This document shows positions 2,648 through 8,301 of a stretch of 8,301 bases of DNA, in pieces (the stretch's first letter is position 1; every line of letters begins with the position of its first letter). This DNA is from a virus (Duplodnaviria > Heunggongvirae > Uroviricota > Caudoviricetes). The notes below the pieces were generated by a model. It searched no databases. It saw only the letters and a program-made list of their open reading frames with translations, and was not told where the DNA came from. The stretch is from IMG/VR virus record IMGVR_UViG_2609460356_000006. One strand, 5' to 3'. A program made the translations under genes and the position numbers.

Positions 2648-2838
2648 TTTGTCTCTCCCATGTGCAGCTCGGCGATTAATGCCCGGTGAATTTCCTGATT
2701 AAAATCACACGCAATAGAAATCAGATTCAGCAGCGTTTCTGAACATTCAGCAGAGGCTTTTTCCAGGATGGTTTCGTAAAGTGATGAAGCCAGCGCTGAT
2801 TTATATTCGGCCTGCTCCAGACAGATTGGCTCACGCAT
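2644..2838 (-). CDS. Hypothetical small protein (64 aa) in the replication operon
   Basis: ORF overlapping both neighbours by a few nt; no recognisable motif. Confidence 0.5.
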
Positions 2839-3022
2839 AGCGAACCTCCTGAACTGGTAGACGGCCAGCGCATACCATCACGCAGCCAGCCGGTGATTGC
2901 TCACGGGCTTCGCGCTCAGTGTTAGCTGTGATGTGAATGACGTTGCGACCGATGGCGCTCAGTGCAAGAAAACGCCAGATGTAGGACTTCCGCCCTTGCG
3001 GGTGTGTGATATGATCTTTCAT
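2831..3022 (-). CDS. Small Ash/Icd-like protein (63 aa), first gene of the leftward operon (position analogous to P4 kil)
   Basis: Internal ATG at 3022-3020 of the long 2831..3805 ORF, preceded by GAGG 5 nt upstream; product [63 protein letters not shown] resembles the Ash/Icd-like small proteins of P4-like islands (from memory). Confidence 0.6.
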
Positions 3023-3109
3023 AGCTGCCTCGTTACTTTCGCTAACGGTGGTGGTTAGAGGCCCGGTTAGTGTTCCACCACTGCCGGGCTTTGCTTTACT
3101 AAAAGTCAT

Positions 3110-3169
3110 GCAATGTAGTACATTGTCAACTCCACTACAGACTAGACCACAGGAGTTGACAATGTCAAC
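3110..3169. promoter_or_regulatory. Divergent control region with palindromic operator-like sites
   Basis: Perfect palindromes CAATGTAgTACATTG (3110-3124) and GTTGACAaTGTCAAC (3155-3169, centred on the RHH start codon), extra half-site TTGTCAAC (3123-3130); 13-bp inverted repeat CATTGTCAACTCC (3121-3133) / GGAGTTGACAATG (3152-3164). Confidence 0.5.
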
Positions 3170-3335
3170 AAGCGAAAATAAAGAGCGCCATGTTGTGCAG
3201 CTCAGACTCGATAAAGAACTGTCAGAGCGGCTCGCTTTAGCGATGAAAGAAGACGGTGACGATAATAAGTCGGGATGGATAAAACGCCTTTTGCGCCGTG
3301 AACTTGATAAGCGCGGCATCGAGCCAAAAGGCTGA
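3162..3335 (+). CDS. Ribbon-helix-helix-type small DNA-binding protein (57 aa), candidate repressor of the divergent operon
   Basis: ATG at 3162 preceded by AGGAG (3151-3155); N-terminal beta-strand pattern [12 protein letters not shown] followed by two predicted helices. The 3048 start of the ORF track lacks an RBS. Confidence 0.65.
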
Positions 3336-3421
3336 ACAGGGTTACTCCCCGTAATGCTGTGGACTGCCCCTCTTAAAAAGGGTCTGTTTTGCGCAACTAT
3401 TAATGAGTTGTGCAGAGGCTC

Positions 3422-3445
3422 CCCTCTTAAAGAGGGTTGGTTATC
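3422..3445 (+). terminator. Possible weak hairpin terminator
   Basis: CCCTC-TTAAA-GAGGG stem-loop (3422-3436) followed by a T-rich stretch; a similar but weaker copy at 3367-3382. Confidence 0.3.
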
Positions 3446-3654
3446 TTCGCAGCTCTCTACGTTTTTCGTCGGAGCCTCTAAACCACGTTTAACGTTGTTT
3501 TGCCATGAACCCGAATACTGTTCGCCTTTGTCTCGATCTCCGTACGTTAAACGTACGCGGTTAATTTGTGCGTACGGATTTCGTCGGCTCAAGGTTTGAC
3601 CACCAGCGGCAAGCCTGGTAATCTGGCGATGTTTCTGTAAAGCGGTATTGCACT

Positions 3655-3683
3655 GGCGGCCCGGCATGGCCGCCTTTGTTTTG
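3655..3683 (+). terminator. Rho-independent terminator for a plus-strand transcript
   Basis: Stem GGCGGCC (3655-3661) / GGCCGCC (3668-3674), 6-nt loop, followed by TTTGTTTTG (3675-3683). Confidence 0.6.
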
Positions 3684-3687
3684 CCTG

Positions 3688-4380
3688 TCATACAATAGCC
3701 TCCACTTTCAGCCCGCCAGCGGTATACCCCTGAACCCGAACACCATCGACGCGATGACGCTTTTTCGTCAGAAAGCGGATGTGATCTGCGTAGACGTACT
3801 GCCATTTACCATCGAGTGCCACACGTTTAAACCACGGATGAGGCTTAGATATGGTCTGGACAACTGGCGCGGAAGCCTTGCAGGGCGTGGGTTCTGCTGT
3901 GCATACCCCCTTATCGTTACCCGTTACTCTATACAGCCAGTAACTTGCCAGCTTCCCGGTCAATTTACGGGTGCGCACGGGGATATAACCCGCCTCACGC
4001 ATCGCCTTACCAAAAGTGGCATCGTCCGGGTAATACTGGCGGCGTAGTTCCGTAGATACTGAAACGGCAAAGCTGCGTTTAGTCGGGTATTCCTGCCACT
4101 GGCCGACAAATTCAAAAGGAAGACCATTAACCCTTCCTTTGGTCTTGTCCTTGCCGCTTATCCCTACATCATGGTCTGCCTCATGCACGGACACGCCGGA
4201 ACGCAGCCACACCAGCCCGTTACCGTTGTGGCGCAACCCCAGATCGGCAAGCGTAAATTCACCGCGATTAATGGGCGACCAGTCACCGGAAATAACCTGT
4301 TTACGGTTCGCTGAAATATCGTGCTGGCTGGCTACAGGGTGAGCGAATCCCTGCCCGTGGAGGGCATTAATCTTTTTCAT
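3688..4380 (-). CDS. Conserved hypothetical protein (230 aa) downstream of alpA; possibly the inovirus Gp2 / YfjJ-like family (low confidence)
   Basis: Long ORF with SD-like AGGT about 9 nt upstream, 20 nt after the AlpA-like stop (operon). Family guess rests on synteny in P4-like islands only. Confidence 0.75.
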
Positions 4381-4400
4381 CTCAGATTACCTGTGGTTAA

Positions 4401-4685
4401 TTAAGCAGATTTACGGCTGTATGGGTTATTGACGTTCTCTACTGCTGGCGGATTACGAACCCACCAGAGCACATCCGAAAGAAGCCAAGCACAGCTATTG
4501 CGGCCAAAGTGACAGCGCGGAGGGAAGCGCCCCTGCTGCTCCATCTTCCAGCGGCTGGAACGGGAAAGACTGGTGATCTCGCTGCATTCATCTTCACGGA
4601 TTCGGCGATCAAACTTAAAGCCGTACTCTTCTAAAAGGGTGCGGCGCTGTTCAGGATTTGGCGGGGTAAAGGTTATATTTTGCAT
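4401..4685 (-). CDS. alpA: AlpA/Vis-family phage transcriptional regulator (MerR-like HTH), 94 aa with N-terminal extension
   Basis: SLSRSSRW...GRFPPRCHFGRNSCAWLLSDVLWWV aligns by eye with the AlpA HTH and W-x3-EVxxW motifs; GGAGG upstream of the ATG. Confidence 0.8.
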   Translation of the reverse strand: MQNITFTPPNPEQRRTLLEEYGFKFDRRIREDECSEITSLSRSSRWKMEQQGRFPPRCHFGRNSCAWLLSDVLWWVRNPPAVENVNNPYSRKSA

Positions 4686-4807: not shown

Positions 4808-4940
4808 ATAACGCTCCCCTGTTTAAAACAGTTTCCACAGTAATTTCAACGGCTGTCTCGAGAGAAAAAATCATGAATTTCAATAACTCGCCGAAGATCA
4901 CCGTTCTTTAACGATTTGATTCACCTTGGATTGTTCATAA

Positions 4941-5000
4941 CAAAGATGAACAATGATGAACGCTGATGAACAGTGATGAATAACCATGAACAAAGATGGA
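4941..5000. repeat. Six tandem 10-bp units nnnGATGAAC (iteron-like, TGTTCATC on the other strand), candidate ori
   Basis: GATGAAC at 4945, 4955, 4965, with GATGAAT at 4975, CATGAAC at 4985, GATGGA at 4995, all in strict 10-bp register; inverted TGTTCAT at 4932-4938. Confidence 0.5.
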
Positions 5001-5040
5001 AAAAGTTAGCAAGTAATGACCTAGTAGGGACCGTGGATGG

Positions 5041-5140
5041 AGCTAGGTATTGTTAGGTGCTGTCGGGTGCCGTTACGTGTCATAACGTGTCATTACGTGT
5101 CGTTGAATGCTGTTGAATGCTGTTGAATGCTGTTGAATGT
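5041..5140. repeat. Phased decamer array continuing the 10-bp register
   Basis: TGTYRGGTGC x2 (5051-5070), CRTWACGTGT x3 (5071-5100), YGTTGAATGY x4 (5101-5140); no unique spacers between units. Confidence 0.6.
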
Positions 5141-5275: not shown

Positions 5276-5926
5276 TCATTCCGTATAATAAATCGAATTT
5301 AATGCCTTTCGAATTTTCTCATATATTGCTGATTTAGATAATCCAGTTTTAGATATACCTTCCTCATCAGCTAATTTATATAGTTCGTTTAAAATAGCCG
5401 AGATGCTTGGTTTTTTAGAGGTGCCAAACGAATGGCCTATCTTATGTGCTATAAGCTTGACCAGCATCCCCATTAATTTATCATTATATTCCTTTTCATC
5501 TTCTTTACGATGCAAGCCGCGTTTGCTGCTTTTCAATGCAATTCCGACCTGTAAAAGCTCATCCCCTCCCATAGCATAAAGATGCTCTTTTCCTTTGTTT
5601 TGATTAGCAATTATAGCCACCGCCGCAAGGCATCTGTCCTTTATGGGTTGTGGTGTAATATCTTCATCAATAAGAGGATATGCCAGAGCAAACATATAGT
5701 CTGCGGGATAGGCTGTTGAGTTTCCACCTCGAAATAATTTAGATGCTGATAACCATCTACTCAGTTGTCGATAGTATATATTGTAAGCTTCAACTTTCGC
5801 TTCAGGGATATCAGCAGTTTTAACTGTCGGATCTACCCCACACATAAGTAGTGCAAGTTGTTTAATATTTAGCTCCGGGGCTTTGGCTTCTCGCTCGAAA
5901 ATACCCAATTTTAGAAAACTAGTCAT
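5276..5926 (-). CDS. AT-rich cargo protein of unknown function (216 aa) with a C-terminal HTH-like segment, start/stop-coupled to int
   Basis: ATG (5926-5924) overlaps the integrase stop as TAATG; sampled 60-nt lines give roughly 27-45% G+C against about 65% in a sampled line of the replication module; C-terminal ISKTGLSKSAIYEKIRKAL resembles an HTH; no family recognised. Confidence 0.75.
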   Translation of the reverse strand: MTSFLKLGIFEREAKAPELNIKQLALLMCGVDPTVKTADIPEAKVEAYNIYYRQLSRWLSASKLFRGGNSTAYPADYMFALAYPLIDEDITPQPIKDRCLAAVAIIANQNKGKEHLYAMGGDELLQVGIALKSSKRGLHRKEDEKEYNDKLMGMLVKLIAHKIGHSFGTSKKPSISAILNELYKLADEEGISKTGLSKSAIYEKIRKALNSIYYTE

Positions 5927-7146
5927 TATTCAGCCTTATTCAACAAAACAATGTTAGTGAATCCACCTGATAAAATATCAAGTCTGTCATACCATTTATT
6001 CAACGCATCCAGTTTCTCAGGCAAGTACAGACTACGGTTATAAATCGCCATGACTCCCGGCATTGAGTGCCCCAGCAACTGTTCGACAACGTGTGGTGCT
6101 ATACCCATATTATTCATATGCGTTGCTAAAGTTCGTCTTAGATCGTGCAGTGTCCATGGTTCAGAATGCCCTAGCTTTTTATAAACGCCGCGGCCCCACT
6201 GACTTACCGCTTCACTGCCTTTAACCGACCCAAGCAAAAGGCCGGATCGTTTCGTTTCATCATGCAGTATTTCAATGAATTTGCGCATGGCATCCGGCAC
6301 AGGTCTTACAATCTTCTCGCCACCCTTGCTGTGCTCTTTGGGAACTGTCCAGACCCAGGCATCCATATCCCATTCACTCCACTCTGATAGCCTGGCCTCC
6401 TGCGTTCGGCACCCAAACACTATTAAGATTGTCAGTAGCCTGGTGTAGTAAGGCATGAAGCAAGTGCCAGAGGAAATGGCAGCCCATAAATCGCCAGCCT
6501 CTTTATCGTTTAATACCCGGTCTTTTTTTGCCTGTTTTTTACCGACATCTGGAATTGTTAAATCTTCAAGCGCGGTACTCACAGCATAGCGACGAACCCG
6601 GCAGAATTTCAGGGCTTGTTTGCACATCTGGAACACATAACCTGCGGCGACTGGAGTTTTCTTTTTCATCCTGTCAAAGCAGTCAAGCCAGTATCGTGTT
6701 TCACAGTCAGCGAGCGCCATTTTCCCTATATAAGGATAAATGTGTTTTCGCAGCTCCGCTTTGTGCCGTTCAACATTCGCGCGGTTCTCTTCTGCATATT
6801 CGCGTATCCAGTATTCTATAGCTTCCTTAACAGTGACCGGTTTAAGGGTTTCCTGAGTAGTCAACGCCAACTGGTGCTTTGGATCTTTACCTGAGGCCAG
6901 CCACTGGCGGCATTTATCACGCGATGAACGGGCTTCTTTGAGGCTCATATCCGGGTATCGTCCCAGAGTCAGACGATGCAGCTTCTGCCCGTCAAGTCGG
7001 TAAGTAAACACCCAGCTAATACCACCAGCTTTAGTTACCTTGGCGCTCAGCCCGGCACCATCAGCATAGAACTCAATCTTACTGGCCGGGATACCATGTA
7101 ATCCCTTTAACTTCCTGTCGCTCAGTTTGTTAAGTTCGCCAGCCAT
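5926..7146 (-). CDS. int: Tyrosine site-specific integrase, P4-like family (406 aa)
   Basis: N-terminal arm-binding-type region (LSDRKLKGL...WVFTYRLDGQKLHRLTLGRYPDMSLKEAR), catalytic motifs HDLRRT, LLGHS and downstream Tyr; N-terminus faces the host junction. Confidence 0.9.
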   Translation of the reverse strand: MAGELNKLSDRKLKGLHGIPASKIEFYADGAGLSAKVTKAGGISWVFTYRLDGQKLHRLTLGRYPDMSLKEARSSRDKCRQWLASGKDPKHQLALTTQETLKPVTVKEAIEYWIREYAEENRANVERHKAELRKHIYPYIGKMALADCETRYWLDCFDRMKKKTPVAAGYVFQMCKQALKFCRVRRYAVSTALEDLTIPDVGKKQAKKDRVLNDKEAGDLWAAISSGTCFMPYYTRLLTILIVFGCRTQEARLSEWSEWDMDAWVWTVPKEHSKGGEKIVRPVPDAMRKFIEILHDETKRSGLLLGSVKGSEAVSQWGRGVYKKLGHSEPWTLHDLRRTLATHMNNMGIAPHVVEQLLGHSMPGVMAIYNRSLYLPEKLDALNKWYDRLDILSGGFTNIVLLNKAE

Positions 7147-7392: not shown

Positions 7393-7416
7393 ATAGGTGT
7401 CACAAAGGGAGTGACC

Positions 7417-8301
7417 ATGAGAACAGGATGTGAACCGACCCGGTTTGGTAATGAAGCTAAGACCATTATTCACGGTGATGCCCTTGCCGAACTTAAAAAG
7501 CTACCTACTGAAAGCGTCGATCTGATCTTTGCCGACCCACCGTATAACATCGGTAAAAATTTTGATGGTCTGATCGAAGCCTGGAAAGAAGATCTGTTTA
7601 TCGACTGGCTGTTTGAAGTGATTGCAGAGTGCCACCGCGTTCTGAAAAAGCAGGGCAGCATGTACATTATGAACAGTACGGAAAACATGCCCTTTATCGA
7701 TCTCCAGTGCCGCAAGCTTTTTACCATCAAAAGTCGCATCGTCTGGTCATATGACAGTTCTGGAGTACAGGCGAAAAAACACTACGGCTCCATGTACGAA
7801 CCCATCCTGATGATGGTGAAAGACGCAAAGAACTACACATTCAACGGTGATGCTATTCTGGTAGAAGCCAAAACCGGATCGCAGCGCGCGTTGATCGATT
7901 ATCGCAAAAATCCTCCACAGCCATACAATCATCAAAAAGTACCGGGTAACGTCTGGGATTTTCCGCGCGTGCGTTATTTAATGGATGAATATGAGAACCA
8001 CCCGACGCAAAAACCGGAAGCCTTACTGAAACGCATTATTCTCGCCTCTTCCAACCCAGGCGATATCGTTCTCGACCCGTTTGCCGGTAGCTTTACTACC
8101 GGTGCCGTAGCCATCGCCAGCGGACGAAAATTCATTGGTATTGAGATCAACAGCGAGTACATCAAAATGGGGCTTCGACGGCTGGATGTCGCGTCGCATT
8201 ACTCCGCGGAAGAACTGGCGAAAGTGAAAAAAAGAAAGACGGGCAACCGGTCAAAACGATGCCGGGTTAGCGAAGTTGACCCCGATCTCATTGCAAAGTA
8301 A
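7417..8301 (+). CDS. yhdJ: DNA N6-adenine methyltransferase (beta-class, DPPY motif), host gene
   Basis: ATG at 7417 preceded by AAGGGAG (7405-7411); product MRTGCEPTRFGNEAKTIIHGDALAELKK...DLIFADPPYN, 294 aa, recognised from memory as YhdJ. The GTG at 7411 in the ORF track is probably not the start. Confidence 0.85.
   Translation: MRTGCEPTRFGNEAKTIIHGDALAELKKLPTESVDLIFADPPYNIGKNFDGLIEAWKEDLFIDWLFEVIAECHRVLKKQGSMYIMNSTENMPFIDLQCRKLFTIKSRIVWSYDSSGVQAKKHYGSMYEPILMMVKDAKNYTFNGDAILVEAKTGSQRALIDYRKNPPQPYNHQKVPGNVWDFPRVRYLMDEYENHPTQKPEALLKRIILASSNPGDIVLDPFAGSFTTGAVAIASGRKFIGIEINSEYIKMGLRRLDVASHYSAEELAKVKKRKTGNRSKRCRVSEVDPDLIAK

Follow-up and report, generated by a model that had tools for sequence, protein, structure and literature searches.

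Gram-negative phage-inducible chromosomal islands (PICIs) comprise four zones, named Integration, Bro, Replication and Late (Mageeney et al. 2023, PMC10111431). The Bro network was defined by Iyer, Koonin and Aravind in 2002, and in the 2023 study proteins sharing flanking segments with Pfam-defined Bro proteins were collected as candidates. In capsid-forming PICIs (cf-PICIs), alpA is needed for induction (10.1101/2022.09.08.507074), and the gene downstream of alpA has been described as a variable region 'of unknown function' (He et al. 2025, 10.1101/2025.02.11.637232). Here we describe one occupant of this position, a 230-aa protein encoded on the minus strand at 3688-4380 of an 8,301-nt stretch of viral DNA (Caudoviricetes, IMG/VR record IMGVR_UViG_2609460356_000006; the whole stretch is referred to below as the window). 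A literature search found no paper that assigns a function to this protein. We found that its gene fills a slot whose content is exchanged as a cassette and, tentatively and at a little under even probability, we read its product as a trans-acting nucleic-acid-binding regulator that would be deployed after AlpA induction and would act on helper and/or island gene expression, a reading that draws on a structural model and on analogy.

The locus compares well with the Bro zone of Gram-negative PICIs. The gene lies between int/alpA and the primase gene and is co-oriented with them, directly after alpA and ahead of the replication genes, and it has segments in common with proteins in which a Bro-network Pfam domain occurs, which is how Bro candidates were recognized (PMC10111431). 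It begins with the leader termed b1, continues with shuffled segments as Bro-zone proteins do, and all of its pieces can be found in Supp. File 2 of that paper, where the leader appears as b1, domain A as b15, the first part of domain B as b14, and the rest of domain B together with domain C as b8. Unlike in members of the Bro network, the folded parts of the protein have no detectable relatives outside its own small family. The one satellite protein of the Bro network shown to bind DNA and repress a promoter of its helper phage is CapR of the PICI-like element (PLE) of Vibrio cholerae (Netter et al. 2021, PMC8096241). Both proteins are satellite-encoded and belong with the Bro network, and CapR provides our working analogy for the mechanism; the two have, however, no sequence or domain similarity, and the element, the host and the helper all differ, the analogy being functional only. 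In a 2026 survey of Enterobacter satellites, BRO, AntA/AntB and Rha proteins were listed as 'putative antirepressors' (PMC13612085).

Among the closest described elements are the KpCIDSM30104-type cf-PICIs of He et al., and KpCIDSM30104 itself lowers the titre of its helper, the resident prophage P1, more than 100-fold (10.1101/2025.02.11.637232). The slot and the kind of island are the same as in the window, and two such islands (L016 and L057) hold a 94%-identical copy of the gene; the window differs in the recombinant patch of its allele (residues ~122-170) and in being cut by IS1 after the primase gene. In L016, the island of Klebsiella pneumoniae ATCC 13883, the copy follows alpA and is very probably the gene of the experimentally studied island, because ATCC 13883 and DSM 30104 are the same type strain. 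L057 (LR881103.1, 'Escherichia phage vB_KppS-Ant', 16.5 kb) is the only record labelled as a phage that holds a homologue of the protein (94% identity); with int, alpA, the slot gene, primase, capsid, protease, portal, connector and terminase genes, it is a packaged cf-PICI sequenced from induced particles. Across the compared region, L057 and the ATCC 13883 island gave identical blastn statistics against the window, and the 765-aa 'tail length tape measure protein' annotated in L057 looks doubtful for such an element. A 97%-identical E. coli island (L001) continues beyond the point where the window is cut with major capsid, prohead protease, portal, head closure, connector and HNH genes. Because these complete relatives, L001 and L057, carry capsid genes of their own, the element in the window, which itself has int, alpA and primase genes and an IS1 fragment where a packaging module would follow, is by sequence comparison probably a Gram-negative PICI of the capsid-forming type at fis/yhdJ, the packaging module being seen in the two relatives.

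The second comparison is with satellite P4; the initial annotation had spoken of P4-like islands. As read from the P4 record, the early left operon comprises orf88 (the AlpA homologue), eta/kil with the CI RNA, epsilon, orf151, cnr and alpha, with the first gene downstream (eta) coupled to the AlpA homologue (as cited in PMC10111431), and sid, delta and psu lie at 9583-11460. The order of AlpA homologue, accessory regulators and primase is shared with the window; as a name for a capsid-forming Gram-negative PICI, 'P4-like' is imprecise. Unlike in P4, the Eta/Kil counterpart of the window is a separate Icd-like gene (2831-3022) and not the 230-aa protein, no C4, isrK or CI-like RNA was detected, and the relatives of the island encode their own capsids. 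An Rfam search for P4-type CI, C4 and isrK immunity RNAs in or near the gene returned no match even at E ≤ 10. Neither L001 nor L057 has sid, delta or psu annotated, a direct search with the P4 proteins not having been made.

The open reading frame (ORF) starts with ATG and ends with a stop codon at 3688-3690. A chance ORF can be rejected in favour of a real gene under purifying selection, because the protein has homologues in 176 clusters at 90% identity, its identical sequence occurs on 65 contigs, substitutions relative to the nearest alleles concentrate at third codon positions (13, 6 and 23 at positions 1, 2 and 3), and the ratio of nonsynonymous to synonymous polymorphism (pN/pS) is 0.24 overall, falling to 0.15 in the middle domain and to 0 in the C-terminal domain. 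The identical copies are always named hypothetical protein ('MULTISPECIES: hypothetical protein [Enterobacteriaceae]'), and the protein is conserved over its full length from Escherichia to Serratia (70-74% identity). Its composition bears out the initial description of a basic, Gly-rich protein (isoelectric point (pI) 9.91; 35 Lys and Arg versus 20 Asp and Glu; Gly 10.0%), with the glycine content only mildly enriched. A further minus-strand ORF of 324 aa (2831-3805), given as a coding sequence in the phage record LR881103, starts inside the 3' end of the gene and crosses the intergenic region antisense to a small convergent gene. It was rejected as a full-length gene: across the intergenic region, substitutions in its own frame number 7, 17 and 10 at the three codon positions, and because this frame has no third-position bias, the ORF is noncoding upstream of its last ~63 codons, which are the Icd-like gene.

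Immediately upstream lies alpA (4401-4685, minus), which encodes a 94-aa AlpA-family excisionase and transcriptional activator (Pfam PF05930, Phage_AlpA, E=5e-10; phrog_2790, E=1.5e-39, annotated in PHROGs as 'excisionase and transcriptional regulator'). From the alpA stop codon to the ATG there are exactly 20 nt (4381-4400, minus), which read TTAACCACAGGTAATCTGAG on the coding strand before the ATG and include a Shine-Dalgarno motif, AGGT, at 4389-4392, 8 nt ahead of the start; both the 20-nt distance and the separate Shine-Dalgarno motif had been noted in the initial annotation and proved exact. The junction TTAATTAA..ACAGG(G)TAA..ATG is kept in loci of Escherichia, Serratia, Xenorhabdus, Photorhabdus, Yersinia and Edwardsiella. 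A scan between the two genes found no terminator-like or promoter-like site, which is consistent with co-transcription. The gene is tightly linked to alpA and, with a spacer and a Shine-Dalgarno motif conserved across genera, very probably co-expressed with it, and in this form the proposed co-regulation is supported. An all-GC 7-bp hairpin is found 14 nt past the stop codon (3655-3674); because a T-run follows it on the plus strand only, it could terminate convergent transcription from the small downstream gene and is not a canonical terminator for the transcript of alpA and the 230-aa gene.

What occupies the position after alpA varies from island to island. Next to a near-identical alpA in E. 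coli islands, at the same or at a second attachment site, the slot holds genes of the AntA (L002, E=1.5e-23), ORF6N (L003, E=1e-11) or pRha (E=4e-5) type (L004 and L056), and after more distant alpA alleles it holds a KilAC gene (L053, by PGAP annotation), a pseudogene (L054) or nothing (L055). Against islands whose slot gene differs, DNA identity of the window extends across alpA and the spacer, breaks off at ~4314 (codon 22-23) and returns at ~3592. From these breaks it therefore follows that the gene is an exchangeable cassette of ~720 bp (approximately 3593-4313, minus), which begins at codon ~23 of the slot gene and ends ~95 nt beyond the stop codon; the window and L004 share 3315-3592 at 88% identity despite their different cassettes. 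Edwardsiella hoshinae (L052, 6690-6925) has kept, downstream of its pRha-type slot gene, a remnant of domain C that is frameshifted and in part deleted, the footprint of a cassette replacement. A chimeric ORF of this kind is also found in the database, as protein P0159. In these comparisons the conserved feature is the slot after alpA and not its occupant. The slot being empty in some islands, the gene is probably an accessory one that the island cycle can do without.

The family itself is narrow: at 50% identity, 1.84 billion proteins contain 40 representatives of it. A family member occurs at 39 loci in 185,579 species genomes, and apart from one contig labelled Chryseobacterium all of them are from Enterobacterales. 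On this contig (L019, CACSKA010000004.1, labelled Chryseobacterium sp. 18061, 430 kb) an island of enterobacterial type carries an 82%-identical member of the family, and mislabelling or contamination of the record is probable. Where loci have enough flanking sequence and recognizable neighbours, the order is integrase, AlpA, family member and primase on one strand, and the family is restricted to such int-alpA-...-primase islands of Enterobacterales. At ~20 of the 39 species-level loci the family member directly follows alpA. A second island type (L005-L008, L017, L020, L021, L051) has the order AlpA, a 144-aa gene, pRha, DUF4222, the family member (165-169 aa), Ash and primase. The suggestion that alpA and the 230-aa gene form a conserved unit accordingly holds for the alpA-proximal position, and for the pair itself only within one island lineage.

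The anatomy of the protein was derived from the family alignment and from an AlphaFold2 model (predicted local distance difference test (pLDDT) 74.7 and predicted template modelling score (pTM) 0.38 for the full chain). The leader (residues 1-23, b1; 4312-4380, minus) is predicted to be disordered (pLDDT 28-48). It is followed by domain A (residues 24-82, b15; 4135-4311, minus), modelled as a helix with a small beta hairpin (pLDDT 71-85), which is present in the 230-aa and ~300-aa forms of the family and absent from the ~170-aa forms. Domain B (residues 83-152, b14 and the first half of b8; 3925-4134, minus) is basic (pI 10.0), has the predicted topology H-E-E-H-H-E-E and contains the invariant residues E97, F104, A105, R113, F123, M127, G131, Y132, R136, G142, W148 and R151; the model suggests a winged-helix-like fold, which we take as a lead and not as established membership. 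A linker of low confidence (residues 153-170; 3871-3924, minus; pLDDT 47-50) leads to domain C (residues 171-230, second half of b8; 3691-3870, minus), with six predicted beta strands and one short helix, a pI of 10.3 and the invariant residues V174, Q175, V196, Y197, H200, L204, K206, R208, R210, G213 and G218. Domain C is modelled with pLDDT above 90 in the full chain, and with pLDDT 89.6 and pTM 0.72 when modelled alone.

Among the relatives, these parts occur as leader+A+B+C, leader+B+C (~170 aa), A+B'+C (~300-335 aa), A+C, C+D and A+B'+C+D, where B' is domain B with an insertion of ~47 aa. Domain C is, on this alignment, the constant core of the family, and the four segments of the protein (leader, A, B and C) are shuffled among its relatives by the combinatorial domain exchange that marks the Bro network. 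Exchange has also reached inside the gene. Nearly all differences from the E. coli/Klebsiella allele are held in a patch at ~3871-4017 (residues ~122-170, the 3' half of domain B and the linker), which carries 17.5 of the 23.5 synonymous changes, has a synonymous divergence of 0.35 as against almost zero elsewhere, and matches the 169-aa lineage of Salmonella and Citrobacter. By these substitution patterns the patch is an intragenic recombinant.

The leader follows a rule of its own. Some 22 aa long, it stands on whichever gene comes first after alpA, whatever domains follow (the window, L002, L003, L004, L009, L052 and L056), with the motif M-K-K-x-x-A-L-x-G-x-G-[FQL]-[AT]-H-P...S-Q-x-D-I, and it is missing where a family member stands second in line (L009, L005). 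The phage antirepressor types Ant, KilA-C and Rha sit in the identical slot of sister islands, and those of AntA (L002), ORF6N (L003) and pRha (L004, L056, L052) type have the leader in common with the 230-aa protein, whereas past the leader there is no homology between them. The rule covers first-slot genes beside closely related alpA alleles; the KilAC-type slot gene of L053, beside a more distant alpA allele, has no leader. Mageeney et al. list 63 variants of b1 in Supp. File 2, where it is catalogued and not explained (PMC10111431). We considered an RNA hairpin at codons 5-11 as the cause of the conservation and rejected it (RNAalifold, two invariant pairs, -0.84 kcal/mol, no covariation). 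Pairwise pN/pS over the 22 codons is 0.3-1.3, which indicates weak constraint and is too noisy to call selection on the peptide; at the sequence level this ratio cannot separate constraint on the peptide from constraint on the nucleic acid or from a recombination anchor.

The initial annotation had recognized no family in the protein, and profile searches agreed, with no match in Pfam, NCBIfam, PHROGs or PADLOC at E ≤ 0.1 and none in a sequence profile search of the PDB at E ≤ 10. Scanning 51 family members at E ≤ 1 returned noise only, such as Phage_Cox (0.06, four members) and MazE (0.1, three members), and the profile scans of the additional family architectures gave no match. In an exhaustive hidden Markov model search of the 1.84 billion representatives, all 40 matches but one were members of the family or fragments of them, with none to the C-terminal region of Icd-like or Eta proteins; the sole outside match (P0156, cell-wall-binding-like repeats, E=5e-5) was judged to be repeat-driven and uninformative. 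The three folded parts are thus without detectable relatives outside this small family. The name 'antA/AntB antirepressor family protein' given by NCBI to one relative (P0075) was treated as an annotation carry-over, there being no AntA profile match.

Our preferred reading, the trans-acting regulator, takes nucleic-acid binding to be likely because domain B is predicted to be winged-helix-like and because both domains B and C are basic, with invariant Arg and Lys residues (R113, R136, K206, R208 and R210). A helper phage would trigger expression of AlpA, and the protein would be made together with it. It would then act in trans, binding nucleic acid through the basic winged-helix-like domain B and the basic beta domain C, and would affect helper-phage and/or island transcription, as Bro-network satellite proteins such as PLE CapR do. 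The variable cassette may give helper or host specificity.

Several results weigh against this reading, which is a prediction only, made from the model and by analogy. Profiles of Bro-N, KilA-N, AntA, ORF6N, pRha, ANT, P22_AR, Ash and KilA-C match neither the protein nor any of its 51 relatives, and no canonical Bro-network Pfam domain is present; the protein is counted in the network for its position and for the leader it shares. No structural neighbours of domain C were found, and a comparison of domain B with the C-terminal winged helix of the island primase was not significant (hhalign P=0.08, 24 columns). Basic charge and a winged helix are also compatible with binding to RNA or to protein. 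Finally, no target site on DNA could be linked to the cassette: the tandem arrays upstream of alpA, considered for this role, go with the module of the 216-aa gene and do not occur in L014, which has the cassette of the 230-aa gene.

The remaining genes of the island are arranged on the minus strand in the order int (5926-7146), the 216-aa gene, alpA, the 230-aa gene, the Icd-like gene, two small ORFs, DUF4222 (2254-2445) and primase (501-2270). Because the tyrosine integrase (5926-7146, minus; Pfam) adjoins chromosomal yhdJ (7411-8301, plus; annotated in L001, with a match to MTase_II in PADLOC), the end of the island was placed at the fis/yhdJ site. Between int and alpA, the 216-aa gene (5276-5926, minus) has phrog_30524 (unknown function) as its only match, and its G+C content is low, 38% compared with ~52% in the neighbouring genes. 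Its position appears to be a second exchangeable slot, because sister islands carry DUF6387 or other hypothetical genes there. In the 590-nt gap between this gene and alpA sit three adjacent 10-bp tandem arrays (4939-5008, ~5070-5100 and 5101-5140), consisting of GATGAACANN in six copies, ACGTGTCATW in three and GTTGAATGCT in three to four. Such iteron-like arrays occur only in the islands with the 216-aa gene module (the window, L001, L015, L016 and L057). They resemble the ori repeats upstream of the AlpA homologue of P4 and could, by their arrangement, be an origin or an operator array.

On the other side, a small ribbon-helix-helix (RHH)-like gene (3162-3335, plus; weak RHH_1 match, E=0.05, and PGAP annotations of relatives) is convergent with the 230-aa gene, and YlcI/YnfO-type or HicB-type genes take its position in sister islands. 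A perfect 14-nt inverted repeat, ACATTGTCAACTCC / GGAGTTGACAATGT (3120-3133 / 3152-3165), ends at the start of the RHH-like gene and, lying in the divergent region between this gene and the icd-primase genes, is a likely operator. Between the two convergent genes there is a noncoding stretch of 352 nt (3336-3687) with two copies of a CCCCTCTTAAAnAGGG hairpin (3367-3388 and 3421-3442), in which no Rfam family was matched. The Icd-like gene (2831-3022, minus), which is the first of the downstream icd-DUF4222-primase block, was assigned from the PGAP name 'host cell division inhibitor Icd-like protein' at the matching position of L001; compared by eye and not aligned, its C-terminus resembles that of a 214-aa P4 ORF (8168-8812), which overlaps the end of orf88 and was taken to be eta. 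The block closes with the D5/P4-type primase-helicase of the replication zone (501-2270, minus; Pfam D5_N, DUF5906 and Pox_D5; phrog_864, E=5.5e-153). An IS1 fragment (1-363), of which ORF 82-348 on the plus strand is the C-terminal part of InsB, follows the primase gene. Because accessory and capsid genes follow at that point in related islands, the island in the window is interrupted or truncated by IS1 right after the primase gene (stop at 501).

Among other explanations, the one that fares best is a strict antirepressor, which we consider unlikely while giving it appreciable weight. The protein would bind a repressor and not DNA, and would derepress the late (tail) genes of the helper or the replication operon of the island once AlpA is on. 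The repressor would be either the immunity repressor of a helper prophage (as for P4 epsilon/Ash on P2 C, or for Ant of P22 or P1) or the RHH protein of the island (3162-3335). Genes of AntA/AntB, KilAC, Rha and ORF6N 'antirepressor' types hold the same slot in sister islands, and reviews call these putative antirepressors (PMC13612085); the 'antirepressor' names of the KilA-N clan are, however, mostly annotation only, and the 230-aa protein has no sequence or fold similarity to Ant, KilAC or Ash domains. A cf-PICI needs the tails of its helper and would therefore gain from the induction of a resident prophage (10.1101/2022.09.08.507074), and variability of the cassette would fit the matching of diverse repressors. 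Yet the family member of the second island type is immediately followed by a separate Phage_ASH gene, which means that the two are not redundant. The RHH gene with the perfect inverted repeat at its start, just downstream, could be a local partner, but neither this gene nor the conserved intergenic region co-varies with the cassette, as the stretch shared with L004 (3315-3592, 88%) illustrates.

A bolder proposal joins the leader to the rest of the protein. The b1 segment may serve for docking or control, coupling the first effector after alpA to a common partner (AlpA, the transcription machinery or a protease), while domains A, B and C, the last with a new small beta fold, would form a nucleic-acid-binding effector of a kind not recognized before, which would set helper specificity or cause the more than 100-fold interference of KpCIDSM30104. 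We regard this combination as speculative and distinctly unlikely. If true, the alpA-proximal slot would be a plug-in specificity module for satellite-helper relations.

That the protein is an effector of helper interference or an anti-phage protein, lowering the yield of a helper or competitor phage (for instance by blocking replication, packaging or late transcription) and varying in an arms race, seems to us improbable. In its favour, the island of K. pneumoniae DSM30104 cuts the titre of its helper more than 100-fold (10.1101/2025.02.11.637232), and the ATCC 13883 island has the 94%-identical copy; by contrast, EcCIEDL933, which may have another gene in the slot, does not interfere with its helpers (10.1101/2022.09.08.507074). 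Variable accessory positions in satellites often hold defence genes; He et al., however, expect the immune systems elsewhere, in two variable regions that flank the packaging module, no PADLOC-DB family of anti-phage defence was matched by the protein at E ≤ 0.1, and no nuclease, NTPase, toxin or membrane motif is visible in it.

A role as replication accessory is more improbable still. The protein would be a stand-alone winged-helix protein binding an origin or iterons, or a Cnr-like partner of the primase, and would tune replication. It is always encoded upstream of the primase gene on the same strand, and the helix-wing segment of domain B resembles, by eye, the C-terminal winged helix of D5/P4-type primases, with one family member giving a faint match to DUF3874 (E=0.17) in this segment; this resemblance, however, was not significant in the hhalign comparison (P=0.08, 24 columns). 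The iteron-like 10-bp arrays upstream of alpA would supply a binding site, but they are lacking in L014, which has the cassette. Moreover, the slot is empty in some islands and filled with unrelated KilA-N-type genes in others that have similar primases.

We give almost no weight to a decaying or functionless ORF hitch-hiking by its linkage to alpA: the slot is dispensable (L055 empty, L054 a pseudogene, L052 a relic) and the family narrow (40 representatives among 1.84 billion), but pN/pS is 0.24 overall and 0 in domain C, the full length is conserved from Escherichia to Serratia at 70-74% identity with many invariant columns, and the modelled domains are confident. Weakest of all, to the point of being negligible, is the inovirus Gp2/YfjJ-like protein guessed in the initial annotation, as found near alpA in CP4-57, which had in its favour only a position beside alpA in an integrated element and is refuted at the sequence level, with no Inovirus_Gp2 match in the protein (E ≤ 0.1) or in its 51 relatives (E ≤ 1) and negative NCBIfam and PHROGs searches. 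The probability beyond the trans-acting regulator and these alternatives is left to an explanation outside them.

That the slot is variable was recognized before, and the segments of the protein were catalogued in 2023 (PMC10111431); nothing in the earlier work is overturned. New here are the domain anatomy, the boundaries of the cassette, the intragenic mosaicism, the finding that domain C has no structural neighbour, and a probable link to an island open to experiment. Capsid-forming PICIs move between enterobacterial genera, their handling of helper phages is only partly understood, and the gene after alpA has been flagged as a variable region of unknown function by a laboratory that studies them. 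In the island described here, the occupant of this slot is a selected three-domain protein, by its model probably nucleic-acid-binding, that is swapped as a cassette with antirepressor-like genes.

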